Positions 10,967 through 29,779 of a DNA stretch of 34,283 nt are shown here, piece by piece; positions within the stretch are counted from its first letter, which is position 1, and each line of letters opens with the position of its first letter. The position numbers were made by a program, and so were the translations under genes. The notes beneath the pieces are model-generated. The model was not told the origin of the DNA, did no database searches, and worked only from the letters and a program-made list of their open reading frames with translations. This DNA comes from Candidatus Altimarinota bacterium (GTDB taxonomy: Bacteria > Patescibacteriota > Gracilibacteria > UBA4473), in NCBI GenBank assembly GCA_027028725.1, contig JALVIB010000030.1, forward strand, positions 1-34,283, given 5' to 3'.

Positions 10967-11767
10967 CTACACCGAAAAAACATCACAAATTTTCAATTTC
11001 CTCTGCAAAATCTGCTCGGCGCGTTTTTTGGTGAAATTGAGATCGTCGTCCGTGGCAATTTGAAAACTTTTTTTCGCCACCGCCTTGCGGGGCACAGCGG
11101 GATTTTTTTCTACCTCACCCCCGCCCTCTCCTGCTAGAAGAGGGAGTAAAGGAGAATCCTTTAAGTCCGGATTTTGGTCGGAAATCCCCCCAACCCACTT
11201 TATCAAGGGGGAGTTATCGGTAAGTAAATCTGTTAAAAAATAAACTTTCAACTGCGTGCCGGCGAGTTTTTGTAAAATTTGGCGCGTTCTTTTTTCCGCG
11301 AAAATTCCTTCGAGAAAAATCAGCGAATCCACGCGCCAAGTTTTGGCTCGGCGGATGTGTTTCCGTGCTAAACGGCGAAATTCTACGGAGTCGGCTAATC
11401 CTTCGTTCGCCATTTCTCGTAAAATCTGTGTTTCCAAAATGGAAAATTTCGCGGATTTTTCCGCACGCGGATTTTTTTGTCTGTAAGCGAAATTTTGTTT
11501 TGCAAGTTTATTGCAAAAACTCCGCGCATCCTTATTTTTTCTATCAAAAACAATTCCAACTCGTCCGAACTTAGTTTTTTCTTCAACAATTTTTTTAACT
11601 AACAGAAACCAGAAATCTTTTTCTGAAATAGCGTCTTTTTTATCAAAATCCCGCGATTTATTCTCCGAAGCTTTAGCGCAGGAGGAAATTTTTATCCAAA
11701 TTTTTTCCGCCGGATAATTTTTCGCCAAGGCGATTATTCCGAAGTCCGTTCCAACGAATTTTTTCAT
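10967..11767 (-). CDS. Degenerate glutamate racemase (MurI)-like protein lacking the catalytic Cys motifs, with in-frame repeat insertions
   Basis: FVGTDFG resembles IGVFDSG; GRVGIV; MANEGLADS...VDSLIFLEGIF resembles VEEG..D.LILGCTHYP; FQIATDD resembles FYTTGD. Visual similarity only. Confidence 0.55.
   Translation of the reverse strand: MKKFVGTDFGIIALAKNYPAEKIWIKISSCAKASENKSRDFDKKDAISEKDFWFLLVKKIVEEKTKFGRVGIVFDRKNKDARSFCNKLAKQNFAYRQKNPRAEKSAKFSILETQILREMANEGLADSVEFRRLARKHIRRAKTWRVDSLIFLEGIFAEKRTRQILQKLAGTQLKVYFLTDLLTDNSPLIKWVGGISDQNPDLKDSPLLPLLAGEGGGEVEKNPAVPRKAVAKKSFQIATDDDLNFTKKRAEQILQRKLKICDVFSV
11078..11098. mobile_element. 21-bp small dispersed element inserted in the core motif
   Basis: TTTCGC[CACCGCCTTGCGGGGCACAGC]GGGATTT, giving NPA[VPRKAVA]K. 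Confidence 0.85.
11656..11685. mobile_element. 30-bp small element inserted in the core motif
   Basis: AAAATCCCGCG[ATTTATTCTCCGAAGCTTTAGCGCAGGAGG]AAATTTT, giving KIS[SCAKASENKS]RDF. Confidence 0.75.
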
Positions 11768-11835
11768 TTCCCCGCGAAATTAGCAAAAAATTTGTCAAAA
11801 AGCCAATCTTTCCTTTACAATTACAAAAAAACAAA

Positions 11836-12369
11836 ATGAATATAGATTTAGCCGATACAAAATACCAAAAACCAGTTTCTAAAACCACGAAAAATTCGCG
11901 GGATTTTTTGAAAACTTTTCTAATTCTCGCTTTTTTGGGAATTTTGGTCTGGTTTGGAATTCTTTTTTATCAAAAAACCACTTTAGAAAAGGAAAATGCA
12001 CGCTACCAAACTTCAATTGAAACGACAACAGAACGAGTCAAAAAGCTACTTAATTCAGATAATCCCGCGAAAAAAATCGCCGTTGCCAAGACTTTAAACA
12101 AATTAGAAAAAAGACGAATTTTGTGGTCCGAAGTGATGGCGAAAATTATTAAATTAGAAATTCCCGGAATTACTTTTCGTGATTTTTCTGTCGGCGACAA
12201 AGGGCAAATTTCAGCAACTGTTTCCGCGCGAAGTTTCAATTCTGTTCAGCAGTTCGTCAAAAAATTAAATTCCGATGAAAATGTGTCGCAAGTCGTTATC
12301 AATTCGATTCGTTTGGATGAAGCGACTGCGGGCTTGCTGGTGGATTTAAATTTTAACTTTAAATACTAA
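11836..12369 (+). CDS. Type IV pilus assembly protein, PilN-like
   Basis: Single TM, coiled coil, WSEVM..I, ferredoxin-like C-terminus; lies upstream of PilO-like and PilC genes. Confidence 0.7.
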   Translation: MNIDLADTKYQKPVSKTTKNSRDFLKTFLILAFLGILVWFGILFYQKTTLEKENARYQTSIETTTERVKKLLNSDNPAKKIAVAKTLNKLEKRRILWSEVMAKIIKLEIPGITFRDFSVGDKGQISATVSARSFNSVQQFVKKLNSDENVSQVVINSIRLDEATAGLLVDLNFNFKY

Positions 12370-12890
12370 TGAAAACTTGGAAAATTTTATTCATTGTGAT
12401 TTTGATTAGCGCGATTGGGTTTGGAGTTTTTCCTTTGCGGAAAAAAATCGCGGGATTACGAACAGAAAACCAAAAACTCGCCAAAATTCGCGAGCAAAAA
12501 ATCGCGGAATACGAAGAACTTACTAGCAAGATGCAAAATCCTGATCAAGGAATTGCTGATCCCGAATTAAAAATCCCGCGAAAATTAGCGCAAACGGAAT
12601 TATTGATAGATTTACAAAAAATCGCTTCTCAAACTGGAATTGAATTGCCAGATTCGTGGTCATTTTCCGTCACCAAAGATGCTGATTTGGATATTTCTCA
12701 GTTGGGCGTGTCTTTCTCGATCAAAGGAAGTCGCGGGAATATTTATAAATTTTTACAACTTGTCGAGCAAAACGAAAGATTTATGGATGTCGAAAGATTG
12801 GCTTTGCGGACTTTTTCTGATAACGGAGTACCAACGATAGAAATGCCAATTAATTTAACTGCTTATGCACAAGAAATTGTCGAAAAATAA
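12369..12890 (+). CDS. Type IV pilus assembly protein, PilO-like
   Basis: N-terminal TM, coiled coil, IP......LL..L..IA..TG, KG....I..FL..VE...RFM.V pattern. Confidence 0.75.
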   Translation: MKTWKILFIVILISAIGFGVFPLRKKIAGLRTENQKLAKIREQKIAEYEELTSKMQNPDQGIADPELKIPRKLAQTELLIDLQKIASQTGIELPDSWSFSVTKDADLDISQLGVSFSIKGSRGNIYKFLQLVEQNERFMDVERLALRTFSDNGVPTIEMPINLTAYAQEIVEK

Positions 12891-12902
12891 TCCTGTGGAC
12901 TA

Positions 12903-14087
12903 ATGAATTTGAATTTTAAAATCTCTCCCAAGAATAAAATCCCGCTGCGCCCCGCAAGGCGGCGGCGAAAAATTATTTACGGGGTGACTGATCGGTCAAA
13001 TGATTCTTTGTGGCAAAAAATAAACGACTTTTTAATCGATAATTCACCAATTACCAAGAAAGAAAAAATGGTTTTTTTTAATTCCCTTAAACTTTTAGTC
13101 ACTTCGGGAGTTAATTTTACCAAAGCCATTCACATGATGGCGGAGCGGAGCAAAAATGAGCATTTGAAACGAATTTTACATACCATTGAATACGATATGT
13201 TGAACTCGGGGATGAGATTTTCTGAAGCAATGGCAAAATATCCGCGAGTTTTTAGTGTTTCAGAAATGAAAATGATTTATTCTGGAGAAATCGCGGGGCG
13301 GTTAGAAGAAGTTTTGGAAGCAGTAGCAACGCGAATTCAGAAAAATATCGAAATGGAAATTCGCGTGAAATCGGCGATGATGTATCCGATTACGGTTTTT
13401 ATCGCGATAATTTTGGCGGGAATAGTGGTGATGCTTTTTGTCGTGCCAAAATTTGAAGCAATGTTCGCGAGTTTTGGGAGTGATTTGCCGATTGCGACCA
13501 AAATTATGATTGGAATGTCGCGCTTTTTTCAAGACTACTGGTGGTTTTTGTTATTAATTTTAATTAGTGCTTGGGTAATTTTCCAAAACTGGAAAAAAAG
13601 CGAAGACGGAAAATATCAATGGGACGAGTTTTTATTGAATTTGCCGGGGATTGGTCCATTAATTCGCGATATTCAAACTGCAAAAATCGCGGGAAATTTT
13701 TCCACTCTCTTGGAGTCTGGAATTCCGATTGCCAAAGCGATTCATGTTTTGGGAGAAATTATTGATAACGATGTAATTTCGCAGGTTTTACTGCAAATTG
13801 AACACGAAGTTCGCAAAGGAAAACAAGTTCACGAAGCTTTTGCAGAACACCCAGAACTAGACCCGATTCTGGCAGAAGTGATAGAAATTGGGGAACAATC
13901 GGGAGCAATTCCGCAAGTTTTGCATAAAGTTGGAATGCAGTATGATTTAGAAGTTGACGCGCAGTTGAAAAATTTATCGGCGATGATTGAGCCACTGGTG
14001 ATTTTAATTGTAGGGCTGGCGGTCACCTTTATGGCGTTGGCGATTATGACACCAATTATGAAAATGCAATCGCTTTTTGCCGGCTAA
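12903..14087 (+). CDS. pilC: Type IV pilus platform protein PilC / T2SS F family
   Basis: Two T2SSF domains: SGV....A, GE.AG.LE.VL, KSAMMYP, LLESGIPI, IGEQSG, IEP. Confidence 0.93.
   Translation: MNLNFKISPKNKIPLRPARRRRKIIYGVTDRSNDSLWQKINDFLIDNSPITKKEKMVFFNSLKLLVTSGVNFTKAIHMMAERSKNEHLKRILHTIEYDMLNSGMRFSEAMAKYPRVFSVSEMKMIYSGEIAGRLEEVLEAVATRIQKNIEMEIRVKSAMMYPITVFIAIILAGIVVMLFVVPKFEAMFASFGSDLPIATKIMIGMSRFFQDYWWFLLLILISAWVIFQNWKKSEDGKYQWDEFLLNLPGIGPLIRDIQTAKIAGNFSTLLESGIPIAKAIHVLGEIIDNDVISQVLLQIEHEVRKGKQVHEAFAEHPELDPILAEVIEIGEQSGAIPQVLHKVGMQYDLEVDAQLKNLSAMIEPLVILIVGLAVTFMALAIMTPIMKMQSLFAG
12946..12966. mobile_element. 21-bp small dispersed element inserted in the core motif
   Basis: AAAATCCCGC[TGCGCCCCGCAAGGCGGCGGC]GAAA, giving IP[LRPARRR]RK. 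Confidence 0.85.
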
Positions 14088-14155
14088 ACATAACCCCTAA
14101 ATCCCCTTATCAGGGGACTTATCCAGAAAATCCCGCGAAATTTATAAGAAATAAA

Positions 14156-14785
14156 ATGAGTAGTAATTCTAAAAAACAAACTCAAAATAAATTTCCCCCT
14201 GATAAGGGGGTCAGGGGGTTAAATTGTGGATTTACTTTGATTGAATTATTGGTAACAATGTCAATTATCGCGATTTTATTCGCGGTGGGAATGCCGGCGT
14301 TTTCAGATTTTCAAAAAACTTCTCGACTCAAAGAATCCGCGGAAACTTTGGAAACAGCTTTTGGCGAAGCTTTTTCGAGCGCGCGTTCCCGACCGGAATG
14401 TTTTGTGTTTTCGGGATCAGGGAATTCTTTGAAATTAGAAAGTTTTGATAAAACTTGCGAAGGAAATGCAAAAAATTCCCGCGAAATTTCTCTAAACCCT
14501 GGAGTGGAAATTTCTGAAAATTTTAAGATTAAATTCAAACCACCATTTGGTGATTTGGAGCTTGTTGAAGGAGATCTTGAAGATGAAAGTGATGAATTAA
14601 AAATAAAACTGTGTAATAAAGATTGTGTGAATTTTGTGGTTTATCAAAAATCGGGATTGTTGACGAGAAAATCCCGCGAAATTTCGGGGGAGAGTGTTTC
14701 CAAGTCCGGACTTAAAGTCCTGAGTTTTGTCTCAAGTCCGGACTTAGAAAAACACTCGGGAAATTCTAACCACTCAAGACAATGA
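14156..14785 (+). CDS. Minor pilin / pseudopilin (FimT/GspH-like)
   Basis: Prepilin motif G|FTLIELLVTMSIIAIL...P, then A.S.ARS; leader and C-terminal tail are repeat-derived. Confidence 0.85.
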   Translation: MSSNSKKQTQNKFPPDKGVRGLNCGFTLIELLVTMSIIAILFAVGMPAFSDFQKTSRLKESAETLETAFGEAFSSARSRPECFVFSGSGNSLKLESFDKTCEGNAKNSREISLNPGVEISENFKIKFKPPFGDLELVEGDLEDESDELKIKLCNKDCVNFVVYQKSGLLTRKSREISGESVSKSGLKVLSFVSSPDLEKHSGNSNHSRQ

Positions 14786-15258
14786 GAACGAAACAAAAAG
14801 GATTTGCTTTAATTGAAGTGATTGTTTCCATTGTGATTTTGTCGCTGGTTTTGGTAGCTGCGGTGGGACTTTTGTATTCCGTGGGACAAGCGGTAGAAAC
14901 CAACCGCGACCGCTTAACCGCGACTTATTTAGCGCAGGAGTGTTTGGAACTAGTCCGTAACGCCCGCGATACTTCTTGGAAAAACTACGAGCCATGGGAT
15001 TGCGCATGGAAAGAAACAACGCCTTGTGAGGGAAAACAGATTGTAAACCTGATTAAACAAAATCCAGTAATGATAAATGAAGAAAGTACAAAATTTTCGC
15101 GGGATTTTCAGGTAGAATCAATTGAGAATGTTTTGCAAGCACAAAGAAGCAGAACCTTATCGAATTCCGAAGAAGTGAAAATAACTTGCACCGTCTCGTG
15201 GGGCGAGAATTCCAAACTATCCATTTCGGAAATACTTACTAACTGGCGGAAAAGATGA
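14782..15258 (+). CDS. Minor pilin (PilV/GspI-like)
   Basis: KG|FALIEVIVSI, A.YLAQE.LE.VR, ITCTVSW. Confidence 0.85.
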   Translation: MRTKQKGFALIEVIVSIVILSLVLVAAVGLLYSVGQAVETNRDRLTATYLAQECLELVRNARDTSWKNYEPWDCAWKETTPCEGKQIVNLIKQNPVMINEESTKFSRDFQVESIENVLQAQRSRTLSNSEEVKITCTVSWGENSKLSISEILTNWRKR

Positions 15259-15914
15259 GAAAAATTTGGGAAAAAGTTTTTGGTAAAATCCCCCTCAATC
15301 CCCCTTTAAAGAAAGGGGGAGGCTCGCAGCAGGTGAAACAGGATGAAAAAAATAAAAAATTTTCCTTTTTCATCCCCCTTTTTTCAAAGGGGGACAAGAA
15401 GCAGGGAATAAGGCAAAGGGGGATTTTAATCAGAAATTTCGCGGGATTTTCCCTCATCGAATTGCTGGTGGCAATGACCATTGGTGGCGTGATTTTGACC
15501 GCAGTGATGACTAGTTATGTGGCAATGACCAAGACGAGTTTGCGACTGGATTTGGCGCGCCAGATGCAGAAAGAAACAAATTTCGCGGTAATTCGAATGG
15601 TGGATAAAATTCGGAATTATCCGATTAAAAATTGTGATGAGAAAAAATTAGTTTTGCAAAACAGACAAGGACATGAAATTACTTTTAAATTTTTGTTAGA
15701 AAATAAACAACAATTAACTCTCAATGAACAACCGCTTTTTTCGGAAAATATCGCGGTCGATGACGGACATTTTGATTGTAAAGGACTTGATGATGAAGAA
15801 AATCCCGCGAAAATTCAGCCCCGCGTGCAGATTTATCTCCAAGTTTCCGCGAAAAAAGATCCCGAAATCACCAACCGCGTGCAGACGACTATTTCTTCAC
15901 GAATTTTTAACTAA
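15255..15914 (+). CDS. Minor pilin (PilW/GspJ-like) with a long repeat-derived leader peptide
   Basis: AG|FSLIELLVAM at about residue 65; C-terminal QTTISSR. Confidence 0.85.
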   Translation: MRKIWEKVFGKIPLNPPLKKGGGSQQVKQDEKNKKFSFFIPLFSKGDKKQGIRQRGILIRNFAGFSLIELLVAMTIGGVILTAVMTSYVAMTKTSLRLDLARQMQKETNFAVIRMVDKIRNYPIKNCDEKKLVLQNRQGHEITFKFLLENKQQLTLNEQPLFSENIAVDDGHFDCKGLDDEENPAKIQPRVQIYLQVSAKKDPEITNRVQTTISSRIFN

Positions 15915-15967
15915 CCCCTAAATCCCCTTATCAGGGGACTTTAAAAATCCCGCGAAAATATAAAAAA

Positions 15968-16939
15968 ATGAATAAATTAAAAAAACGAATACGAAACATC
16001 TTCCCCCTGACAAGGGGGCGAGGGGGTTTGAAAAACAACGGAATGGTAATCCTCTTGCCGACAATTATTTTATCAGGACTGATTTTGGCGGTAGGACTTG
16101 GTTTGTCGCGGGTTTTGATGACGGAACTAGAATTTTCCGCGGATTTGTTGTTTTCCGAAAAGGCGTATTTCGCGGCGGAATCTGGAGTAGAAAAATCTCT
16201 TTTGGCGCTCAAAGATAAACCGCTTAACTATGTTTCCGAATCGGATAAAGAAGTGGGAACAGGCGCGACTTATGATTTGGAAATTGCTAACTCGGTAAAA
16301 GAATTTCCGTTCGTTTTAGACGAAAACGAAACTATTAAATTCCGCTTGGGAGTGGATACTAATGAGAGTTTCGCGGGATATTCCGTGCGACCGATTACAA
16401 GTTTCAAAGTAGATAATTTAGTGGGAATAAAAAGAAATCTGCACTGGAAAATCCTTTGTTTAGTTGATAGCGGAGGAAATCCCGCCCTTCAACGAAGTTC
16501 AGGGCAAGCCCATCGGCAGAGCTCAGGGCAAGCGAAAAAAACGGTAGCCTTGTCAGGGACAGGAGATAATTTTACCAAAGGAAATTATGATGATGGAGAG
16601 AATGAGATTACAACTGAAACTATAGTGAACTTTTTAGGTAGATATAATTCAGAGGGAAACCCTTGTTTTATGTCGTTATCTAATTTTTCTGAGATAAATG
16701 AAGGAAATTCTAGTCGAACCAACCCTTCAACATTTAACTCACAACAAACTAATAATTCAAAAATTCGCGGGATTTTTAAGCCAATAATTCCCGAAACAAT
16801 CGCTCCAGCAAAAGTGAAAATCACCGCCACGGGAAAAAGTTTTTCCCGCGAAAAAATTGTTTCCTTTGATTATTGGCAAAAGAATCTATCCGCGGTTTAT
16901 GATTTGGGGTTGTATTATACGAAAGATTTAACAGAGTAG
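15968..16939 (+). CDS. Minor pilin (PilX/GspK-like)
   Basis: NG|MVILL hydrophobic helix without Glu5, KAYFAAESGVE, ITATG near the C-terminus. Confidence 0.8.
   Translation: MNKLKKRIRNIFPLTRGRGGLKNNGMVILLPTIILSGLILAVGLGLSRVLMTELEFSADLLFSEKAYFAAESGVEKSLLALKDKPLNYVSESDKEVGTGATYDLEIANSVKEFPFVLDENETIKFRLGVDTNESFAGYSVRPITSFKVDNLVGIKRNLHWKILCLVDSGGNPALQRSSGQAHRQSSGQAKKTVALSGTGDNFTKGNYDDGENEITTETIVNFLGRYNSEGNPCFMSLSNFSEINEGNSSRTNPSTFNSQQTNNSKIRGIFKPIIPETIAPAKVKITATGKSFSREKIVSFDYWQKNLSAVYDLGLYYTKDLTE
16486..16533. mobile_element. Two tandem 24-bp small elements inserted in the core motif
   Basis: AAATCCCGC[CCTTCAACGAAGTTCAGGGCAAGC][CCATCGGCAGAGCTCAGGGCAAGC]GAAAA, giving NPA[LQRSSGQA][HRQSSGQA]K. Confidence 0.85.
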
Positions 16940-16958
16940 AGAAAAATTTCGCGGGATT

Positions 16959-18326
16959 TTACTTAACCTTTTGTCGTAAAAAGACGCCTTTGGGAATTTC
17001 TCTGTCGCATTTCATACTCGCTACTTTGTTATTATTTCCGCCGTGCAAAACCTGTACTTTTTCGTCTCCAAACATTAAATCCCCTGCTTTGAAAGAGAAA
17101 TCGTCCGCGATTTTCGGCATAACTACTTCAATTTCGTTGCCTTCCTGAATTCGGTTTTTGACCATAATCTCAACTCGTCCGTTTCCGCTTTTCAGCACAA
17201 TTCCGCAAAATTCTTTATCTGAAACTGACCGATTCGCCTCGTATTGAATGTCTCCTTCGCGCGGTTTTCCGTGCAAAAATCCCGGAAAAAATCCCCTGTT
17301 GGCAGTAGCGTGAAGTTCTTTCCAAAGCTCGGGATTAAACTTTTTTCCCGCGAAAATATCGTCCAAAGCTTGCCGATACGCTCGCCCAACCGTTGCTAAA
17401 TAATAAGCGGTTTTATTGCGTCCTTCAACTTTTAGCGAACAAACTCCCGCCTCAATAATTTCGTCTAAATACTCAATCATCGCCATATCTCGCGAACTCA
17501 TGATGTGTGTCCCGTGGAAATCTTCCTCAACTTTAATCAGTTCGCCTTGTCTTTTTTCTTCTTCAATTAAGTTTTCGGTTTCAAACTCGTGAATTTCGCG
17601 GGATTTTCCTTCTTTCGGTCCACAACAACCAGCTTTGGCATCGTAATGTTCTGTCACATCAACTTCGTTTTCGCCATCATAAACGCGATAATTCCAGCGA
17701 CAAGTATGATTACAAGTTCCGCGATTGGCGTCTCGTCCTCCCGTAAAATTAGAAAGCAAACACCGCCCCGAATACGCCATACAAACTGATCCATGCACGA
17801 AATACTCAAACTCCATATCCGGAATAAGTTTTTTAATTGTCGCCACTTCTTTAATCGACATTTCCCGCGCCGTAATAATCCGTTCCACGCCTAATTGTTG
17901 CCACATGCGAATAGCAGGCTCGTTCATGGTTGAAGTCTGCACGGAAAGATGTTTGGGAATATCTGGACAAATTTTATTCGCCAATGCTAGCACTCCCCAA
18001 TCGGCAAAAATAATCCCGTCTGGCTTAACTTCGTTTAAAAATTCTAAATGTTTTTTGGTCGCCCCAATCGCAAACTGATGCGGAAAAGCGTTCAAAGTCA
18101 CATAAACTTTCTTTCGTTGTCGTCCGTTGTTTTTTTCTTCTGGTAAACCACGCACATACTCAATAATTTCGCGGATATTATCCTCGGTAAAGTTGTTTTC
18201 GCGAGTTCGCAAAGAGAACATCGGGCACCCGCAGTAAATCGCGTCTGCTCCGTACCGAAAAGCCGTGTAAGCTTTCTCAATTGATCCCGCCGGCAAAAGT
18301 AATTCCGGTAACTCCTTTATTTTCAT
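16959..18326 (-). CDS. Peptidase U32 family protein (TrhP/YegQ-like tRNA hydroxylase)
   Basis: PELLLPAG, YGADAIY, HLSVQ, EYFVHGSVCMAYSGRCLLS, RDANRG.C...CRW.Y, SLKVEGR. Confidence 0.93.
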   Translation of the reverse strand: MKIKELPELLLPAGSIEKAYTAFRYGADAIYCGCPMFSLRTRENNFTEDNIREIIEYVRGLPEEKNNGRQRKKVYVTLNAFPHQFAIGATKKHLEFLNEVKPDGIIFADWGVLALANKICPDIPKHLSVQTSTMNEPAIRMWQQLGVERIITAREMSIKEVATIKKLIPDMEFEYFVHGSVCMAYSGRCLLSNFTGGRDANRGTCNHTCRWNYRVYDGENEVDVTEHYDAKAGCCGPKEGKSREIHEFETENLIEEEKRQGELIKVEEDFHGTHIMSSRDMAMIEYLDEIIEAGVCSLKVEGRNKTAYYLATVGRAYRQALDDIFAGKKFNPELWKELHATANRGFFPGFLHGKPREGDIQYEANRSVSDKEFCGIVLKSGNGRVEIMVKNRIQEGNEIEVVMPKIADDFSFKAGDLMFGDEKVQVLHGGNNNKVASMKCDREIPKGVFLRQKVK

Positions 18327-18403
18327 AGTAAAAAATTATTTCAAGCAGGCGGAATATAGCGAAAAAGCTAAAAAACTCAAAAGTAAAAAAATCCCGCGAA
18401 ATT

Positions 18404-19042
18404 TTATTGTACTTCCTTTAATTTAGAAAAAATCTCTTCACTAACTTCTTCTACGCTTTGCTCCCCATCAACGGAAATAAGTTTTCCTGCTTTTTCCCAT
18501 TCTTCCAAAAGTGGATAAGTGTATTCATCAAAGTTTTTTAGACGATTCATAATAGCGTCTGGATTGTCGTCTTTTCTTCGCGAGATATTTTCTGATCCAC
18601 ACACTGGACAAAGATCTTCGGGACTCCCGAAATTTGCCCCACAATCATTACATTTCGCGCGAATTAAAAGACGATTTAACGCTTCCTCATTGCTTAATTT
18701 GATTTCAATTACCACAAAATCCCGCGAATTTTTTGCCAAAAGTGCTTCCAAAGTCTCTCGTTGCACTTCTGATCGCGGAATTCCGTCAAAAATAACTGGT
18801 GTATTATTGTCTAAAGTTTTCAAGAAGTTTTCCACAATTTTCATCACAATATCGTTGGAAACGAGGTCTCCCCGACTGGTAATATCCAAAACTTCTCGCC
18901 CTAAATCTGTATCCTGCTGAGCAATCTCTCGTAAAGCCGCTCCTGTTTCAAAAATCTTAAACCCCAATTTTTTCGCGAGAATTTTCGCTTGTGTTCCTTT
19001 TCCCGAACCTTGTTTCCCGACGAGGATGATGTCTTTATGCAT
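18404..19042 (-). CDS. adk: Adenylate kinase with Zn-binding LID
   Basis: GKQGSGKGTQ, GDLVS, DGIPR, CxxC..CxxC, RKDD. Confidence 0.95.
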   Translation of the reverse strand: MHKDIILVGKQGSGKGTQAKILAKKLGFKIFETGAALREIAQQDTDLGREVLDITSRGDLVSNDIVMKIVENFLKTLDNNTPVIFDGIPRSEVQRETLEALLAKNSRDFVVIEIKLSNEEALNRLLIRAKCNDCGANFGSPEDLCPVCGSENISRRKDDNPDAIMNRLKNFDEYTYPLLEEWEKAGKLISVDGEQSVEEVSEEIFSKLKEVQ

Positions 19043-19082
19043 TATGTAGTTTTAAGATATTTACGCCGCCAAGAATGGCACG

Positions 19083-19111
19083 CCATCCGAAGCTCGCAGA
19101 GCGAAGGATGG
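19083..19111. repeat. Hairpin of the TCCGAAGC..GCGAAGGA family overlapping the tRNA CCA end
   Basis: CCATCC-GAA-GCTC-GCA-GAGC-GAA-GGATGG; resembles the 30-bp inserts at 11656 and 29073. Confidence 0.65.
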
Positions 19112-19183
19112 TGGGTCGGGAGAGGATCGAACTCTCGGCCAACTGGTTAAGAGCCAGATGCTCTACCACTGAGCTACCGACCC
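19109..19183 (-). tRNA. tRNA-Lys(CTT)
   Basis: GGGTCGGTAGCTCAGTGGTAGAGCATCTGGCTCTTAACCAGTTGGCCGAGAGTTCGATCCTCTCCCGACCCACCA; cloverleaf with CTT anticodon. Confidence 0.93.
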
Positions 19184-19836: not shown

Positions 19837-19854
19837 AATCCGCTCCTTTTTTGT

Positions 19855-20955: not shown

Positions 20956-20969
20956 AATCCCGCGAAATT

Positions 20970-21752: not shown

Positions 21753-21767
21753 TTTCCCGCGAAATTT

Positions 21768-22760
21768 TTACAAAAAGATATTAAAAGCGTAACCGATAAT
21801 AATTATTCCCAAAGTTACAATTCCAAAAAATATCGCGAGAAGTTGCCATTTCAGAACTTTTTTGAGAATAAACGCTTCCGGTAAAGAAATCCCAACAATC
21901 GCCATCATCAAAGCCAAAGCCGTCCCCAGCGGAACTCCTTTCGCGACTAATGACTGAATAATCGGAATAACTCCACTGGCGTTGGAATACAGCGGAACGG
22001 CGAGTAAAACCGCGAGCGGAACTCCCCACCAACCGGCTTTTTGTAGATATTTTTCAAAAAATCCCTGCGGGACAAAGCCGTGAATAAATCCTCCCAAAGC
22101 GACTCCGCCCAGCACATACCACATAATTTTTCGCGTGATTTCAAAAGCTTCCGCTGATATTTTTTTCCAGACTTGGCGAAACAAAATTTCGCCACCGCCT
22201 TGCGGGGCGCAGCGGGATTTTGCTTTTTTGTGTTCAGAATGAACTTTCCAGACAAAATCTGCCACATATTTTTCTAAATTTAGTTTTCCCATAATAAATC
22301 CGCCCAACATTCCGATGAAAATTCCCGCGAAAATATACGCCAAAGTTATTTTCAAGCCGAACATTCCGATGAATAAGGCAATCGCGACTTCGTTAATCAG
22401 TGGCGAAGTTATCAAAAACGCAAAAGTCACGCCGAGCGGAATCCGCGCTTCGATAAATCCCATAAATAATGGAATCGACGAACACGAACAAAACGGCGTA
22501 ATCGCCCCAAAAATTGTCGCGAGAAAATAATCTAGTCCGTAAAATTTGTGCTTGGAGAGAAAATCTCGGAGTTTTTCAATCGGCAAATAATACCGCATCA
22601 AACTCATTAAGTGTGTGATGATAATTATCAGGAACAAAATTTTCAGCGAATCGTAGATGAAAAAATTCAACGCCTCAGCGAGATGCGTCCCTTTTTCGAG
22701 AGCAAACAGGTCAAAAGTTAGGTAATTCGCCAGCCATTCAAACGGATAAAAGATATTCAT
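21768..22760 (-). CDS. Permease, DUF318/ArsP-like
   Basis: ITPFCSCSSIP, FLITSPLINEVA, GVPLGTALA.MMA..G.SLPE. Confidence 0.9.
   Translation of the reverse strand: MNIFYPFEWLANYLTFDLFALEKGTHLAEALNFFIYDSLKILFLIIIITHLMSLMRYYLPIEKLRDFLSKHKFYGLDYFLATIFGAITPFCSCSSIPLFMGFIEARIPLGVTFAFLITSPLINEVAIALFIGMFGLKITLAYIFAGIFIGMLGGFIMGKLNLEKYVADFVWKVHSEHKKAKSRCAPQGGGEILFRQVWKKISAEAFEITRKIMWYVLGGVALGGFIHGFVPQGFFEKYLQKAGWWGVPLAVLLAVPLYSNASGVIPIIQSLVAKGVPLGTALALMMAIVGISLPEAFILKKVLKWQLLAIFFGIVTLGIIIIGYAFNIFL
22193..22213. mobile_element. 21-bp small dispersed element inserted in the core motif
   Basis: AAAATTTCGC[CACCGCCTTGCGGGGCGCAGC]GGGATTTT, giving KSR[CAPQGGG]E. Confidence 0.85.
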
Positions 22761-22778
22761 GGGTTATTTTTTTAAAAA

Positions 22779-23675
22779 TTAATTACAGTGATGACAATTA
22801 GAAAATTTCGCGGGATTTTGAGGAACAATTTGTATGGTTGTATGTTTAATCTCGTAGTTCTTATGAAGTAAATTTTGAGCTTTTGCTAAAATTTCTTCTA
22901 AATCTCCCAAATTTTTAATTTGCAAATGAACTGAAAGCATCGGCAAATGCGAACTTTCCAACCAAATATGCAAATCACTAACTTTTTCTACTCCTTTAAT
23001 ATTTTCTAAATCTTTTCGTACTTTTTCATAATCAATATTTTCCGGCACAGAATCGATTAAAGCGTTCACCGTTTCTTTAATTAAGTGATAAATACTTTTC
23101 GCGAGAAAAAGAGAAATAAAAATAGAAATAATCGGATCAATAATATTCCAACCAGTAAAATGAATAATAATTGCGCCAACAATAACGCCCAAGGACAGCA
23201 AGGCATCTTGTAAAGAATGTAGCCAAACCGCTTTCATGTTTGTATTATTTTGAGAATCCCGCAAAAGAATCCAAGTTGCCAAACCATTCCCAAGTACTGC
23301 TACAATTCCTACATAAAACATCTGCGAACTAATAACTTCGGCTGGACTAAATAATCGCAAAACTCCTTCATAGAAAATATAAATAGTTGCCAACATTAAA
23401 ATGAGTCCATTCACAAAAGCGGTCACAAATTCTATTTTTTTATAACCATATGTTTTTGTATTATTCGCGGGTTTTACCGCTGTTTTTTCTGAAATATAGC
23501 CCAAAACCATAGAAGAAATATCTGTGATATTGTGAAAGGCATCTGAAATCAGTGCCAAACTATTTGATAGAATTCCTAGAATAATTTCAAAAATCACAAT
23601 TCCGATATTGATAACAATCGCCAGAATTAAACGAGAAAGTGTTTTGGGAGTTTCGTGAGTGTGCGAATGAGACAT
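22779..23675 (-). CDS. Cation diffusion facilitator (CzcD/ZitB-like)
   Basis: His-rich N-terminus, SLALISDAFHNITD, TYGY...E, WLHSLQD, DLHIW, HTTIQ. Confidence 0.93.
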   Translation of the reverse strand: MSHSHTHETPKTLSRLILAIVINIGIVIFEIILGILSNSLALISDAFHNITDISSMVLGYISEKTAVKPANNTKTYGYKKIEFVTAFVNGLILMLATIYIFYEGVLRLFSPAEVISSQMFYVGIVAVLGNGLATWILLRDSQNNTNMKAVWLHSLQDALLSLGVIVGAIIIHFTGWNIIDPIISIFISLFLAKSIYHLIKETVNALIDSVPENIDYEKVRKDLENIKGVEKVSDLHIWLESSHLPMLSVHLQIKNLGDLEEILAKAQNLLHKNYEIKHTTIQIVPQNPAKFSNCHHCN

Positions 23676-23806
23676 AGTATTTTTTTAAGAATTTAATTTT
23701 TTCGCGGGAATTTTAATAATTTCGCGGGATTTTGGAATTTAAGCTATTGATTTTCTGTTTTTCCAGAAGAAGAAAGGAAATTGAACATTTACAAGAAATT
23801 AGTATA

Positions 23807-23984
23807 GGAAACTCTGATAAATAAAAAATCTATGCGATAAAAGAATGTTATAAGCGCTTCATCTTTTTGGTTAATTTTCCCTCGAAATAGCGATTTCCGT
23901 AGCCCGCTACGAAAATCAATTTCTCGAAAAAATTATCTCAAAAATCTTAAAATTTTTTGTTTTGCGTTATTTATCAGAGTTTCC
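23807..23984. mobile_element. 178-bp MITE with 18-bp terminal inverted repeats flanked by TA
   Basis: TA|GGAAACTCTGATAAATAA ... TTATTTATCAGAGTTTCC|TA with a central hairpin CGTAGC-CC-GCTACG; partial second copy at 29790-29835. Confidence 0.85.
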
Positions 23985-24017
23985 TATATTTAAAATGTAA
24001 GATTTTAACTCAAACTT

Positions 24018-24794
24018 ATGATTAAAAAAGGTAATTCTATAGTTCTTTTTCACGAAAAACAAGTTCGTCGTTATTGGGATGAGGAAAAAGAACTTTGGTA
24101 TTTTTCGGTTATTGATGTAATTGCGATTTTGACAGAAAGCACAAATCCAAGAAAATATTGGAGTGTCCTAAAAACAAGGCTTAAAAAAGAAGGAAGTGAA
24201 GTGGCTACAAATTGTAGCCGTTTGAAATTGTTAGCAAGTGACGGAAAAATGAGAATGACCGATGTTGCTGATACGCAAACGCTTTTAAGGCTTATTCAAT
24301 CTATTCCGTCTCCTAAAGCTGAACCTTTAAAAATTTGGTTAGCACAAGTTGGGTATGAAAGAATAGAAGAAACCGAAGATCCAGAACTTGCTTTTGAAAG
24401 GGCAATGCGAACTTATTTACAAAAAGGATATTCCAAAGAATGGATAAATCAGAGATTAAAAACAATCGAAGTTCGTAAAGAACTTACAGATGAATGGAAA
24501 GAGCGAGGTGTAAAAGAAGGATTAGAATTTGCAATTCTTACAAATGAAATTACAAAAGCATGGTCAGGAAAGTCTGTAAAAGCATATAAAAAATTTAAAG
24601 GACTTAAAAAAGAGAATTTACGAGACAATATGACAAATCTTGAATTGATTCTAAACATGTTAGCCGAAGCTACAACAACAGAAATTTCCAAAAAGAAACA
24701 ACCCAAAAATTTTCAGCAAAGCAAAAAGGAAACTAAAATAATTCTACAAACCAAGGAAACTCTGATGGAAATCACCCCATCAAAATTTCCTTAA
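24018..24794 (+). CDS. BRO-N domain protein (phage antirepressor-like), C-terminus possibly truncated
   Basis: VRRYWD....WYFSVIDVI..LT, LKL.A.DGK.R.TD, IQSIPSPKAEP.K.WLA..G.ER, LRDNMT..EL. Confidence 0.88.
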   Translation: MIKKGNSIVLFHEKQVRRYWDEEKELWYFSVIDVIAILTESTNPRKYWSVLKTRLKKEGSEVATNCSRLKLLASDGKMRMTDVADTQTLLRLIQSIPSPKAEPLKIWLAQVGYERIEETEDPELAFERAMRTYLQKGYSKEWINQRLKTIEVRKELTDEWKERGVKEGLEFAILTNEITKAWSGKSVKAYKKFKGLKKENLRDNMTNLELILNMLAEATTTEISKKKQPKNFQQSKKETKIILQTKETLMEITPSKFP

Positions 24795-24942
24795 CTTAAG
24801 ATAAAAATTTCGCGGGATTTTGGAATTTAAACTCTTGCATTTGAGAAAAATATAAAATAGTATTCACCTGACTAAGAACTATTTAAAGTTTGGATAAATT
24901 CTAGTTATCGGAAATAAATTTTATTCTTACAAATATCTAAAT

Positions 24943-25365
24943 ATGAACATTTTCATTCAATACTTTTTAGCCCCAATAACTACAGGAGTGATTATATTCA
25001 TCGCTCAATTCTTTTTACTTCCAAAACTTGAGAGAAACAAAGTTGCTCAAGTTGAATTATGGAGAGAGAAAAAAGATGTATTTATTAAGTCAGTTGAATT
25101 AATAGACGAAAAATATCAGTCTCTTGACTTTGGAAAGGGACACAAAACCACTTTCAGCAAACCAATGGAAGTTAACAAGATATATACAAGATTGCTTATA
25201 CTAAGTGAAAATCAGAAAATACCAGATAAGTTTTGGAAATTTTTTGATAATTCTGTTTTAAAATACACTCCTGCTGAAAGAGGTGAGTTTATTCTACTTC
25301 TTCAAAAAGAACTGGGGCTAAAAAGCGATACTAGACCTAATGAGATTCCTTATATATTCGAATAA
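24943..25365 (+). CDS. Hypothetical protein with N-terminal TM helix (cassette ORF)
   Basis: 140-aa ORF, AT-rich, hydrophobic residues ~3-27; no recognised family. Confidence 0.75.
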   Translation: MNIFIQYFLAPITTGVIIFIAQFFLLPKLERNKVAQVELWREKKDVFIKSVELIDEKYQSLDFGKGHKTTFSKPMEVNKIYTRLLILSENQKIPDKFWKFFDNSVLKYTPAERGEFILLLQKELGLKSDTRPNEIPYIFE

Positions 25366-25375
25366 AATTTACATC

Positions 25376-25520
25376 CGATAACAAAGTATATGAGGTTCAA
25401 GAAAAAGTGCGTTAATAATTTTCAAAGGTTGCGCTTTTTCTTTTACCCAAATTTCGCCTCCTTTTATGATAAACTTAATAAGGAAGTCGGCGAAACTTCT
25501 CATATACTGAAACGTTAAAT
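25376..25520 (+). other. attC-like recombination site (~145 bp)
   Basis: R'' CGATAAC; AGTATATGAG (25385-94) pairs with CTCATATACT (25499-508); R' GTTAAAT; internal hairpins AAGAAAAAGTGC/GCGCTTTTTCTT and TTTCGCC/GGCGAAA. Confidence 0.75.
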
Positions 25521-25573
25521 TTCCCGCGAAATTTCTTGTTATCTCGTGAGCTTGTGAACTCGTAAACTATTTT

Positions 25574-27073
25574 TTAGTGTAAAAAACTTCGTGTTCCGGT
25601 CAAAACCATTTTAATTCCTAATTCGTCAGCTTTGGCGAAAACAATTTCGTCATTTCGTGAACCTCCCGGCTGAATAATCGCGGAAATTTTCGCTGCTCCC
25701 GCCGCCTCCACCGCGTCCGGAAAAGGAAAGAAGGCATCAGAGGCAAGAGCTGCTCCCGCGGCTTTTTCTCCCGCTTGGGCAATAGCATTTTTCATCGCAT
25801 CAACCCGCGAAGTTTGCCCTCCGTTTGCGCCGATTAAAGCGCCGTCTTTAACAATCGCAATGGCGTTTGATTTCACCATTTTGACGATTTTCCAAGCAGT
25901 CAAAAGATCAGTAATTTCTGCTTCGGAAGGCGCTTCTTTGGTCACTGTTTCCAAATTTTCGCGGGAAATTTCCTTCAAATCAATTTCTTGCATTAGTGTT
26001 CCCCCACGAACCCGTTTTAGAGCGAAATCCGGCTCCACTTTATCCATATTTGATACTTCCAAAACTCGTAAATTTTTCTTGGTCCGCAAAATTTCCAATG
26101 CGTCATCATCATACGCCGGCGCCATCACCACTTCGTTGAAAAAGGAGACAATTTGCTCGGCTGTCGCTTTATTTACCTTGCGATTCAGCGCAATAATTCC
26201 ACCAAAAGCCGATAACGAATCACCCATTTCGTAAGCCCGCGAAAAAGCATCTTCAATGGTTTCACCAATCGCCGCACAACATGGTGAAGCGTGTTTGATA
26301 ATGCAGGCAAAAGGTTCTTGGAAACTAATCGCCAATTCCAACGCCCCAGTCGAGTCTCCGAAATTATTGTAAGAAAGCGGTTTCCCGTTTAAAACTTTAG
26401 CTTTAACTAAATTCACTCCTTCCACAAACGGATCTTCCAAAATTACTGCCGATTGGTGCGGATTTTCTCCGTAACGAAGTGGCATTTTTTCGGCATTCTC
26501 CACCCAAAATTTCGCGATTAATAGATCGTAGTGCGCGGTCATTTCAAAAACTTTCGCCGCCAATAATTTTCGTGTTGGCAAAGAAATATCACCTTCTTGT
26601 TTCAATTCCGCGATAATTTTCGCGTAATCTGCCGGATCGACAACTGGCGCACAAAATTCAAAATTTTTCGCCGCCGCCCGAATCATTGACGGACCTCCGA
26701 TATCAATTTGTTCCACTTTTTCGCGGAAATCTTTGGATTCGTCTAGATAATTTTTCTTGAACGGATAAAGATTAACCACGACCATATCGATGTCTTCTAA
26801 ATTATTTTCCGCCATAAATTTCTCGTGAAGCTCGTTTTCGCGCAAATACAAAATTCCCGCGAAAATTTGCGGTGTCAGGGTTTTAATTCGTCCTTCCAGT
26901 CCTTCTGGAAACTTTGTAAAATCAGCAACTTCTTGAAGTTGTTCAATCCCGGCTTCTTTTAGTTTACGGAAAGTTCCGCCCGTGGAAAGAATGTTGTAGC
27001 CAAGCTTTTCCAGCTCTTGGGCAAATTCCACGATACCTGTTTTGTCTGAAACCGAGATTAGTACATTTTTCAT
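25574..27073 (-). CDS. purH: Bifunctional AICAR transformylase / IMP cyclohydrolase
   Basis: ISVSDKTG, STGGT, VVVNLYPF, IDIGGPSMIRAAAKN, LRYGENPHQ, IKH..PC, ASDAFFPF, IIQPGGS. Confidence 0.98.
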   Translation of the reverse strand: MKNVLISVSDKTGIVEFAQELEKLGYNILSTGGTFRKLKEAGIEQLQEVADFTKFPEGLEGRIKTLTPQIFAGILYLRENELHEKFMAENNLEDIDMVVVNLYPFKKNYLDESKDFREKVEQIDIGGPSMIRAAAKNFEFCAPVVDPADYAKIIAELKQEGDISLPTRKLLAAKVFEMTAHYDLLIAKFWVENAEKMPLRYGENPHQSAVILEDPFVEGVNLVKAKVLNGKPLSYNNFGDSTGALELAISFQEPFACIIKHASPCCAAIGETIEDAFSRAYEMGDSLSAFGGIIALNRKVNKATAEQIVSFFNEVVMAPAYDDDALEILRTKKNLRVLEVSNMDKVEPDFALKRVRGGTLMQEIDLKEISRENLETVTKEAPSEAEITDLLTAWKIVKMVKSNAIAIVKDGALIGANGGQTSRVDAMKNAIAQAGEKAAGAALASDAFFPFPDAVEAAGAAKISAIIQPGGSRNDEIVFAKADELGIKMVLTGTRSFLH

Positions 27074-27406
27074 TTTTTAAAGAAAATTGTCGCCCGTATT
27101 TTGTTTTTTTAATGAAAAAAATCTAGCAAAAATCCCGCGAAATAAAATGACACTCTACGAGCTTGCGAGTAGTTAGTGGAATTTTACCCTGAGCGACAAA
27201 TTCTTTTTGAAAATCAGAAGTCGAATGGGTCTCTCTTGTGCCAAGTCCGGACTTGTTTTTCTAAAATTTCGCGGGATTTCTTATTATCTTGTAAACTCGT
27301 AAACTTATTTAATTACTTTCACTTGTTGTCCATAAATATTAGGCAACCACAAAGGATCGCCCCTACAAAAAATTATTAACTTTTAATTGTTAACTATTAA
27401 TTTTCT

Positions 27407-29779
27407 TTACTGCTGTCCATAAATTTCGCGGGGTTTGGCACCGCGACTTGGTCCGATAATTCCGCGTTCTTCCATTTGGTCGAGAATTCGTGCGGCGCGG
27501 GCATAACCAATTTCCAGTCGGCGTTGCAGGAACGAAGCCGATGCTTTTTTATTTTGCAAAACAACTTCCACCGCTTTGGAATAAAGTTTATCCAAATCAG
27601 CATCATCCGTTTCGCGTTGCGGTAAACCAGCCGTCAAAACTTTCCCTTTCGCCATTCCTTCAATGGATTGCTCGGTAATTTCATCGTTTCCAATCGCTTC
27701 CGGGAACTGTAATTTAAGGAAATTCACTAACCGCGAAACTTCTTCGTTAGAAATATAAATTCCTTGCACGCGCGTTAAATTTCCTGAATTTCCGTCGAGA
27801 TACAACATATCTCCTAGACCGAGCAAACTTTCCGCTCCCATTCCATCAATAATTGTCCGCGAATCGATCTGCGAAGAAACCTTGAAGGCAATTCTCGCGG
27901 GCAAATTTGCTTTAATCAAACCAGTTACGACATCAACCGAAGGTCTTTGTGTCGCGATAATTAAATGCATCCCGACCGCTCGCGCCAGCTGCGCAATTCG
28001 GACAATCGCCGCCTCGACATCTTTCCCCGCGACCATCATTAAATCCGCCAACTCATCAACAACAATCACAATCCGCGGTTCCTTTTTTTCCGCGAATTTT
28101 TCGTTGTATTGATCTATATTTACCACTCCGACTTCCGCCAGCATTCGATAACGACGATTCATTTCCGCCACCGCCCACGCCAGTGCGGAAACGGATTTTT
28201 CCGGTTCAACAATCACCGGTGTCAAAAGATGCGGAAGCCCTTTATAACGGCTTAATTCTACGCGTTTCGGGTCTATTAAAATTAGTTTCAAATCTTCCGG
28301 CGAATTATTCCAAAGCAAGGAACACAAAAAAGCGTTCATTCCGACCGATTTCCCCGATCCTGTTTTCCCCGCCATCAGCAAGTGAGGCATTTTCGCGAGA
28401 TTTACAACTACCGGTTTCCCCGAAACATCGCGTCCCACCGCCAATTTCAACGGATCTTCGGATTTTTCCCACGCTTCGGATTCCAAAATTTCGCGCATAC
28501 TGACATTGGCGCGCTTGGCGTTCGGGATTTCAATTCCCACCAAACTTTTCCCACGAATCGGGGCTTCAATTCGGATATTTTCAGCTGCCAAAGCGAGCGC
28601 TAAATCGTTTTTGAGTGAAGTAATTTTGGTTAATTTTACGCCCGCCGCCGGTTCTAGCGTAAATTGCGTGACGGTTGGACCAACATGCACTGATTTCATG
28701 GTTACTTCAATTCCAAACTGGCTTAATTTCTCGCGAATTTTTTCGGCATCGGCGCGCAGTTTTTTCTCGTCTGCAACCACTTTGGATGGCTTGTTTTCCA
28801 ACAAATCCAAAGTTGGCGGTTCCCAAGTTCCCTGCAATTTTTGGTGCATTTTTTCCTCAATTTTTTCCTCGCAAGATTTTTCGCGGGATTTTATAACTTG
28901 TTTTTTCTCGTTCGCATCAACTATTTCCAGCTCATTCTGAAACCGCGAACTCGTTTTTTTCGCGGATTTTTCTTTGGCAATTTCCGCTTTCGCTTCGTCT
29001 AAAATTTTCTTCTGCACCGCTCCGGTAGTATCTTCTATCTTTAACTCATCCTTCTGTCTACTTCCTTTTCGCGCCTGCCCTCCGAAGCCTTGGCGGAGGA
29101 GGGAAAAAATTTCCGACCAATGAATTCGAAACCCAATTGTCGCTGTAATCCACGCCAAACCGAGCAAAAAAACCGCCGTCACCATATCACCAAAAAATTC
29201 GCGGATAAAAAAATCAATCGTAAAGCCCAGCGCTCCTCCGCGTGTTGCCGATAAAGCCAGCGACTCGTTTTGCGGAAGGGATAAATTTATCAGTCCCAAA
29301 ATCGCAGCAAAAAAGACTATCAGTGACAAAATCCGCACCGGTGACCATTCGTAATAAAAAGGATGTTTTTGGTCATCGGGATTTTTGGTGAAAATAAAAA
29401 TTCCCCCAATGGCGATAAAAATCAATGGCACAATCCACAACCCAATCCCGAAAAGCCAGCGAAATCCCGCGAAAATTTGGCGAGAAAGTTCGGCGGAACT
29501 GAAAAAAATCGCTAACAAAATTATCCCCAAACTAATCCAACTCCACCCGACAATTTCCTTATAAATCGGTGTATTTTTGAATTCCGCCACTTTTTTTTCG
29601 CGGGATTTTTGTCTTTCAATTTTCGCTTTGGCTTTGGCCTTGGCTTTTTCACGCAAAGCTTTGGCGCGCTCTTTCTTTTTCTCCGCTTCAAGCATTTTTT
29701 TCGCGGCTTTTTGCGCCTCTTTCCGCAAAACACTGGCGGGAATTCGCACGGTCGGCGATTTTTTCTTTTTTCCAAACAT
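27407..29779 (-). CDS. ftsK: DNA translocase FtsK/SpoIIIE
   Basis: N-terminal TMs, PHLLMAGKTGSGKS, LIDPK, VVDELADLM, ATQRPS, gamma domain LQRRL.IGY.RAAR. Confidence 0.98.
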   Translation of the reverse strand: MFGKKKKSPTVRIPASVLRKEAQKAAKKMLEAEKKKERAKALREKAKAKAKAKIERQKSREKKVAEFKNTPIYKEIVGWSWISLGIILLAIFFSSAELSRQIFAGFRWLFGIGLWIVPLIFIAIGGIFIFTKNPDDQKHPFYYEWSPVRILSLIVFFAAILGLINLSLPQNESLALSATRGGALGFTIDFFIREFFGDMVTAVFLLGLAWITATIGFRIHWSEIFSLLRQGFGGQARKGSRQKDELKIEDTTGAVQKKILDEAKAEIAKEKSAKKTSSRFQNELEIVDANEKKQVIKSREKSCEEKIEEKMHQKLQGTWEPPTLDLLENKPSKVVADEKKLRADAEKIREKLSQFGIEVTMKSVHVGPTVTQFTLEPAAGVKLTKITSLKNDLALALAAENIRIEAPIRGKSLVGIEIPNAKRANVSMREILESEAWEKSEDPLKLAVGRDVSGKPVVVNLAKMPHLLMAGKTGSGKSVGMNAFLCSLLWNNSPEDLKLILIDPKRVELSRYKGLPHLLTPVIVEPEKSVSALAWAVAEMNRRYRMLAEVGVVNIDQYNEKFAEKKEPRIVIVVDELADLMMVAGKDVEAAIVRIAQLARAVGMHLIIATQRPSVDVVTGLIKANLPARIAFKVSSQIDSRTIIDGMGAESLLGLGDMLYLDGNSGNLTRVQGIYISNEEVSRLVNFLKLQFPEAIGNDEITEQSIEGMAKGKVLTAGLPQRETDDADLDKLYSKAVEVVLQNKKASASFLQRRLEIGYARAARILDQMEERGIIGPSRGAKPREIYGQQ
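29073..29102. mobile_element. 30-bp small element inserted in a TTTCGCGAAA site within ftsK
   Basis: TTTTCGC[GCCTGCCCTCCGAAGCCTTGGCGGAGGAGG]GAAAAAAT, giving IFS[LLRQGFGGQA]RK. Confidence 0.75.

Follow-up and report, generated by a model that had tools for sequence, protein, structure and literature searches.

In-frame copies of a 30-nt DNA hairpin in a Gracilibacteria genome and their likely link to an Ssn-like GIY-YIG nuclease

The spread of short palindromic repeats is described as poorly understood (PMC8266576), and for the closest described system, the SRM/NTS repeats and their nuclease SsnA, the origin of hundreds of hairpin copies is left open in the text that reports them (Chenal et al. 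2025, PMC11893778). Binding of SsnA to its hairpin is restricted to single-stranded DNA (ssDNA) and to one strand, and cleavage falls a few nucleotides upstream (PMC11893778). Here we describe a family of 30-nt hairpins, two of which interrupt genes in a 34,283-nt stretch of DNA (hereafter the window) that constitutes contig 30 (JALVIB010000030.1) of a Candidatus Altimarinota bacterium assembly (GCA_027028725.1; 1.04 Mb, 38% G+C, 94 contigs). These inserts are probably solitary copies of a strand-specific DNA hairpin element whose partner would be an Ssn-type GIY-YIG nuclease of miniature size, consisting of a single domain. As with SRM/NTS, the repeat is a short oriented hairpin present in many copies, a conserved 5' head adjoins the palindrome, copies flank a gene for a single-domain GIY-YIG protein in the class of about 80-95 aa, and repeat-bearing genomes tend to have the nuclease gene (PMC11893778). 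Unlike SRM, the hairpin has a different sequence that fails the published pattern, it includes a 3x3 internal loop, two thirds of its copies lie inside genes with exact insertion boundaries visible, and its cassette stands at the 3' ends of transfer RNA (tRNA) and transfer-messenger RNA (tmRNA) genes, the word 'tRNA' not being found in the main text of PMC11893778. We interpret the family as a new class of Ssn-type hairpins, distinguished by natural insertion events of unusual clarity and by a heavy load of in-frame copies in genes.

The CGTC-tagged repeats (Rickettsia RPE-4/RPE-6 and Neisseria dRS3; Di Nocera et al. 2013, PMC3733652) provide a second point of comparison, as tagged stem-loops that have no RAYT link and that in some species lie in frame inside genes. 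Their tag is CGTC or TGTC (PMC3733652), and columns 11-14 of the present family read TG(T/C)C, with CGTCAT in some copies. In the published families (PMC3733652), perfect stems of 8-9 bp start with AT, enclose loops of 4-5 nt and are followed by a CCA tail; unlike these, and as compared by description, the elements studied here have a tag that overlaps a 6-bp stem, an internal loop and no tail, although they may yet correspond to one of those families.

The two window inserts, their targets and their host genes are as follows.

Positions 11657 to 11686, plus strand: hairpin copy 1, head TTTA (a degenerate CYTG) and 26-nt hairpin TTCTCC-GAA-GCT-TT-AGC-GCA-GGAGGA
Positions 11652 to 11656, plus strand: target CGCG(A) of copy 1, inside an abundant motif, AAAATCCCGCG^AAATTT
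Positions 10967 to 11767, minus strand: open reading frame (ORF) hosting copy 1, 266 aa, with SSCAKASENK added after residue 27
Positions 29074 to 29103, plus strand: hairpin copy 2, head CCTG and hairpin CCCTCC-GAA-GCC-TT-GGC-GGA-GGAGGG
Positions 29070 to 29073, plus strand: target CGCG of copy 2
Positions 27407 to 29779, minus strand: ftsK, host of copy 2, 790 aa, with FtsK_4TM, alpha, motor and gamma domains

Copy 1 scores 48.9 bits (E 7e-9) and copy 2 54.4 bits (E 3e-10) with a covariance model trained on 41 copies; a structure scan and a fuzzy core search had turned up many members of the family. A first-pass annotation, made from the sequence alone, had placed the pair at 11656-11685 and 29073-29102, and the common core that it saw is present in both stretches. 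It allowed 1 bp for an ambiguous boundary; because G and A flank the insert, placement shifts by 1-2 bases, copy 1 being ambiguous within 11655-11686, and the head-plus-hairpin placement adopted here suits all copies. The ten residues that excision was expected to remove are those found (SSCAKASENK or SCAKASENKS in the 266-aa ORF; LLRQGFGGQA in FtsK, where about 10 residues are added at residues 226-236). It located the FtsK insert in the linker behind the transmembrane domain; residue 226, the first affected by the insert, is also the last of the Pfam FtsK_4TM match (106-226), and the alpha domain (322-420) lies further on. The MurI-like identity proposed for the other gene found no support, the 266-aa ORF having no Pfam or NCBIfam match at default thresholds and, as its best, a sub-threshold TsaD/TsaB-type match (16.7 bits). 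Its start codon and the N-terminus upstream of the insert are kept in congeners, which places copy 1 within coding sequence.

Both sites are empty in two genomes of the same genus (G001 and G002; FtsK 87-88% identical to that of the window). At the ftsK site, CGCG is directly followed by AAAAAATTTCYGACCAATG in both congeners, whereas in the window exactly 30 further bases separate CGCG from AAAAAA; straight after CGCG the congener sequence reads AAAAAATTTCYGACC, where the window has CCTG and the 26-nt hairpin. At the copy 1 site both congeners read CCGCG and then AAATTTTAAT, exactly 30 bases shorter than the window. A 10-aa gap in an FtsK orthologue alignment had been proposed as the check on insertion: the gap exists in the DNA as 30 bp in both congeners, but the proteins are only 2 residues shorter net, because the linker beside the insert has diverged, and the indel is clean in DNA only. 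Genome-wide, the model yields 63 matches (E<=0.0012), with 0 in either congener. Some counterpart of 36 of the 63 was present in the 344 kb of G002 compared site by site, 15 of them with both flanks alignable, and all 15 lacked the element; the gap was exactly 30 bp after CGCG in five, exactly 60 bp in three and ambiguous through local divergence in seven, one of which is the FtsK site that direct congener comparison resolved. No target-site duplication was seen at the filled and empty pairs beyond 1-2 ambiguous bases, and the terminal inverted repeats and target duplication of a miniature transposon derived from an insertion sequence (or of a miniature inverted-repeat transposable element) were not found, the element being a single hairpin. 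The copies are exact 30-bp additions, or 60 bp where one copy nests in another, and these empty-site comparisons bear out the earlier claim of a short mobile element inserted at CGCG with the frame kept.

That the copies are instead ancestral, each having been deleted precisely in both congeners, is hardly credible. Precise excision is possible in principle for hairpin elements, and the FtsK site is both filled and empty among contigs of other samples, a comparison made on assemblies; joints or indels within one run were not found in those assembled contigs. Loss would require dozens of exact deletions in each of two genomes, the insert was found in 0 of 28 more distant FtsK orthologues aligned, and the nuclease cassette and other repeat families are missing from the congeners as well.

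The repeated unit consists of a 4-nt head (CYTG) and a 26-nt hairpin, in which a 6-bp stem is followed by G(A/T)A opposite GAA and by GC(C/T)-TT-(G/A)GC. In an ungapped alignment of the 41 training copies, which are 41 of the 63 model matches, 96.7% of stem cells are paired, a figure partly due to the selection filter (at least 4/5 outer pairs), and 6/9 stem pairs show changes on both sides. The covariation of the inner stem is unaffected by this filter: its third pair is C-G in 22 copies and T-A in the other 19, with no mismatch. The 24 G.T cells, compared with 4 A.C cells, mark the GAA strand as the folding strand. A possible replication-strand bias shows in 41/61 copies, whose GAA strand coincides with the C-rich strand when judged on 10-kb flanks (p 0.01), but in only 37/61 on 6-kb and 35/61 on 3-kb flanks. 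Head positions T11 and G12 are conserved in at least 90% of copies and the heads seen are CYTG, CGYG or CTCG, with GTAG confined to the loop variant CGTAGC and never at the head position. Among the variants are units of 48 nt, whose apical loop is longer by 18 bases. Seven others are 60-bp units, where CCGA^AGC of one copy houses a second, and these pairs are located at different CGCG sites with different flanks. One weak copy lies near the end of the window.

Positions 34211 to 34243, plus strand: truncated copy, CGCG-CTTG-TCCTCC-GAAGG..., apical part absent (22.4 bits, E 0.027)

The element contains CGAAG twice as a direct repeat, and a deletion between the two could have produced this copy.

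The hairpin also occurs well beyond this genus. An 18-nt core with three degenerate positions was found in at least 120 contigs from many phyla; about 140 chance matches are estimated for the collection searched, so the core count alone means little. Among the matches listed, 117/121 have at least three of four further complementary stem pairs, and 54 of these 117 carry the head CTTG, CCTG or TTTG. Viral contigs with the hairpin, stem and head included, number at least 119, with the extended stem in 113/129 matches listed, and the loop sequence is conserved across phyla and viral contigs. Several viral contigs hold two or three hairpin copies, and some are labelled GVMAG (giant-virus bins). 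A text search of the literature with 13-mers of the core returned a single unrelated paper and none on the hairpin.

Four small GIY-YIG ORFs are encoded in the genome, and one of them is closely associated with the hairpin. This 79-aa ORF (contig 3, 5588-5824, minus strand; PF01541, 51.6 bits, single domain) follows immediately on the CCA with which the tmRNA gene ends (contig 6, 40777-41197), in the order tmRNA CCA, a hairpin in opposite orientation overlapping the CCA, a spacer, a hairpin in gene orientation, 24 nt and the ATG. Hairpin and spacer form a 108-bp tandem duplication before the gene, at overlapping ends of contigs 6 and 3, and these contigs therefore probably join there. In both congeners homology ends at the tmRNA CCA, with no cassette after it. 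The three further small GIY-YIG ORFs belong to other subtypes (contig 49 77-384, contig 56 2503-2718 and contig 3 5363-5575); tRNA-Asn immediately precedes one of them, direct repeats frame another, and the remaining one, UPF0213-like, adjoins the 79-aa gene.

A small GIY-YIG gene recurs beside the hairpin in other lineages. Clustering of genes (ORFs of at least 100 or 90 aa) near the 120 genomic and 119 viral loci listed gave no recurrent family; the size cut hid the nuclease, which surfaced once ORFs down to 55 aa were scanned. Although the 120 cross-phylum loci had been picked solely by the 18-nt core, a small GIY-YIG ORF is present in 7 of those listed; five of the seven have an exact-core hairpin 5-120 nt upstream of the start, and three of these five follow a tRNA. 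Viewed from the nuclease, 7/30 loci of homologues of the 79-aa protein have a model match 25-160 nt upstream on the same strand, which covers 5/9 evaluable close homologues (binomial p 8e-9). Among 40 relatives, close homologues (E<=1e-17) are encoded in eight genomes, all eight hairpin-positive, and in none of the 25 hairpin-negative genomes (p 8e-5). Across a phylum sample of 150 genomes the two-by-two table of hairpin and homologue is 28/9/11/102 (odds ratio 29, p 4.7e-14), a statistic that, like the other co-occurrence tests, is uncorrected for phylogeny. These patterns point to a hairpin that goes with the 79-aa Ssn-like GIY-YIG gene rather than with a RAYT.

Several observations weigh against this pairing. 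Nine of the 37 hairpin-positive genomes in the phylum sample lack a homologue at E<=1e-12, another 11 have a homologue without the hairpin, and a GIY-YIG ORF was found in 0 of the 119 viral hairpin loci listed (ORFs of at least 55 aa). The two hairpins before the 79-aa gene itself score only 18.5 bits with the model, and the published SRM search pattern has 0 matches in the genome and overlaps 0/63 copies. The 79-aa protein has no NCBIfam match, its best solved relative is UPF0213 1zg2 (E 4e-5), and its placement in cd10448 (GIY-YIG_unchar_3), the Ssn clade, is at most tentative. A RAYT gene, too, is present here and has no counterpart in the congeners; since RAYT and nuclease were both gained, the candidate drivers are inseparable within the genus. 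We know of no GIY-YIG nuclease that joins DNA, so insertion would need further steps.

The REP-associated tyrosine transposase (RAYT) offers an alternative: as REP elements, the inserts would be mobilized by the genome's own enzyme through single-strand cut-and-paste of the IS200/IS605 type. We regard this as unlikely.

Contig 87, positions 7199 to 7765 (locus L001, 1459 to 2025): RAYT

This one intact gene scores 89.6 bits against NF047646 (cut-off 80), its HxH and Tyr motifs align to those of E. coli TnpAREP 4ER8, and neither congener has the RAYT unit (about 650-690 bp) at its syntenic locus. The hairpin layout, with a 4-nt head, outer stem, 3x3 internal loop and short GC inner stem, presumably matches that of the E. 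coli REP, and duplication-free insertion 3' of a fixed tetranucleotide is typical of the IS200/IS605 family. The layout of REP elements is set out in PMC3733652. The head is also placed as IS200/IS605 guide tetranucleotides are (PMC8266576). The family further resembles REP/BIME repeats and their RAYTs in its head tetranucleotide, irregular palindrome, compensatory stem changes, high copy number and single-strand logic (PMC8266576, PMC6006769, PMC3333891), and among 41 relatives RAYT-family matches occur in 14/16 hairpin-positive versus 11/25 hairpin-negative genomes (p 0.008). However, the repeats that border the RAYT or lie within its reading frame are ordinary GTAG REPs, which differ in sequence from the hairpin. 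Those flanking it are GTAG-GCGCGGTCAC/GTGACCGCGC, with about 29 copies genome-wide, and a 'double-foot' REP, and one GTAG REP is in frame between the HxH and Tyr motifs, an arrangement described for subclass 2.4 (PMC6006769). Unlike REP/BIME repeats (PMC8266576, PMC6006769, PMC3333891), the hairpin has the head CYTG and not GTAG, its copies are mostly singletons and not pairs, it does not flank the RAYT, and its co-occurrence with RAYT is weak; neither the REPtron head GT[AG]G at the palindrome foot nor the REPtron rule that copies flank the cognate RAYT gene applies to it. There are no model matches in L001 or in six other RAYT loci searched, the hairpin is near 1/16 RAYT matches in genome G007, and the two RAYTs that are near hairpins share only 23% identity. 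A RAYT-like ORF was found in 1/120 listed cross-phylum loci, 2.8 kb away, and in 0/119 viral hairpin loci listed; co-occurrence in the phylum sample is slight (odds ratio 2.1, p 0.056), and near-complete genomes with 4-9 hairpin copies have no Y1 transposase match.

The association with tRNA and tmRNA genes is not restricted to the nuclease cassette. The first-pass annotation had proposed a third window hairpin as a member of the model, and it is a true relative, in the form of a tRNA-trailer variant.

Positions 19083 to 19111, plus strand: tRNA-trailer hairpin variant, CCATCC-GAA-GCTC-GCA-GAGC-GAA-GGATGG

It ends in three bases complementary to the CCA of tRNA-Lys(CTT) (19109-19183, minus strand). 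In all, a family hairpin whose arm pairs over the encoded CCA stands behind 8/41 tRNA genes and behind the tmRNA gene, and these trailer hairpins are followed by a common CAC(A/G)(G)CCAG tail. The cassette could have its home at this position, or the hairpin there could be a trailer that acts in RNA processing. The second possibility extends to an improbable account of the whole family, in which the hairpin mainly serves the host as a signal in RNA or DNA (for example as trailer, terminator or processing signal) at the end of tRNA and tmRNA genes, and the coding copies are incidental. The trailer hairpins over CCA, the recurrence of the tRNA-trailer position in other phyla and the loop sequence kept there and in viral contigs all suit such a signal. 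Coding copies, by contrast, occur in both orientations (26 opposite and 16 same among 42 copies in ORFs of at least 150 aa), the wobble-favoured GAA strand is antisense in both window genes, and both congeners manage without any copy. Nor does the hairpin stand out as a structured RNA: no Rfam family matches a window copy at E<=10, or seven loci at the gathering score, and although the expected hairpin is the minimum-energy fold in single-sequence folding, its z-scores are ordinary (-0.7 to -2.9).

Most copies lie at one kind of site. The further CGCG-associated copies that had been anticipated are abundant, 38/63 copies being directly 3' of CGCG or CGCGA, and the remaining contexts are near-variants (7), C-rich sequence (9), nested positions (6) and unrelated sequence (3).

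Target-site sequence: AAATCCCGCGAAATTT

CGCG lies inside a hyper-abundant, genus-specific motif, which supplies most targets; AAATCCCGCGAAA is present in 1319 copies in the 1.04-Mb genome, 956 and 244 copies in the congeners and 0-1 copies in 38 other relatives. Gene conversion or template switching between these roughly 1300 motif copies, with the flanks serving as short homology and no dedicated enzyme, could in principle distribute the hairpin. We judge it very unlikely. It would account for 38/63 copies at one point of the motif and for stem subfamilies that correlate with the 3' flank, 7/7 CGCG copies followed by GGA being in the opposite motif orientation and most of these seven being, by eye, of the TCATCC type. 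Near-identical 60-bp nested units, however, accompany either type of 3' flank and also stand at degenerate sites; the place taken by a nested copy is CCGA^AGC of its partner, outside the motif; and other genera and phyla carry the hairpin without the motif.

Other features of the motif and of neighbouring repeat families were observed. The full motif form is AAAATCCCGCGAAATTT (for example, window positions 11645-11662 and 29064-29073), its 13-mer core is equal on both strands, and its density resembles that of DNA-uptake sequences or HIP1-type words. About half of motif copies (54%) are in long ORFs (at least 150 aa), which make up 78% of the genome. Three 48-50-nt hairpin copies carry the motif (AAAATCCCGCGAAATTTT) in the apical loop (contig 6 30534-30595, contig 90 3533-3594 and contig 62 5438-5501), where the motif itself thus behaves like an 18-bp insert. 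The palindrome AAGTCCGGACTT has about 131 copies here versus 1 in 340 kb of a congener. Hairpins of the CCCCTTTCTCAAGGGG type, present here and not found or nearly so in the same 340 kb, host an element subfamily with the stem TCGGTC/GACTGA.

Genes carry a large share of the copies. Counting as coding those with a start codon upstream within an ORF of at least 150 aa, 41/63 copies are in frame, with all six frames used and 19 copies in a single frame that reads like SSFAKASEDK. By eye, the consensus is free of stop codons in all six frames, and the variants with a T-A apical pair or a GTA loop have one stop-bearing frame per strand; a stop-free consensus and a length divisible by three together allow copies to persist in genes as 10-residue additions. 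The first-pass annotation had stressed that every coding insert is a multiple of three. The divisibility is real, but it is built into the element and does not reflect selection site by site, since the 30-nt unit is common to coding (37/41) and non-coding (17/22) copies, with variants of 48 and 60 nt. Any coding depletion is at most a mild effect: set against the 78% of the genome that long ORFs cover, the 42/63 copies within them give p 0.03, and set against the 54% of motif sites there, p 0.06. Rickettsia palindromic elements have reportedly been found in frame in genes, in work by Ogata et al. (cited in PMC3733652), and the present family is like them in being a selfish palindrome tolerated in frame in small-genome housekeeping genes; in-frame copies absent from orthologues are found in the two window genes, alongside the other coding copies. 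The two differ in host lineage and in unit, RPE-1 being much longer than the 30-bp element here, and to our knowledge no nuclease link was made in the Rickettsia work.

By analogy with SsnA, the 79-aa nuclease would bind the folded GAA strand as ssDNA and cut a few bases 5' of the hairpin, at the position of the left junction. This junction is 4-5 nt 5' of the stem, in agreement with the SsnA cut site a few nucleotides upstream of its hairpin (PMC11893778). A hairpin set free or copied in this way would then be joined to CG sites that are exposed in single-stranded DNA. More speculatively, nuclease and 30-nt hairpin might constitute a minimal mobile system of an undescribed kind, in which an ssDNA-only nuclease would drive the precise insertion of a single hairpin, free of duplication, 3' of CG sites. 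Such a system, itself a tentative proposal, might insert into its own copies and into ORFs, across phyla and viruses, with the 3' ends of tRNA and tmRNA genes as the home of the cassette.

Natural before-and-after pairs for more than 10 insertions fix the unit, its junctions, the lack of duplication, the CG-type target and self-nesting at one position. The family ties together in-frame protein inserts, tRNA and tmRNA trailers, a pan-bacterial and viral hairpin and a tiny nuclease gene, and the nuclease and hairpin represent a directly testable enzyme-substrate pair. For annotation, these copies serve as a warning that 10-residue low-complexity segments such as SSFAKASEDK in these bacteria are repeat-derived.

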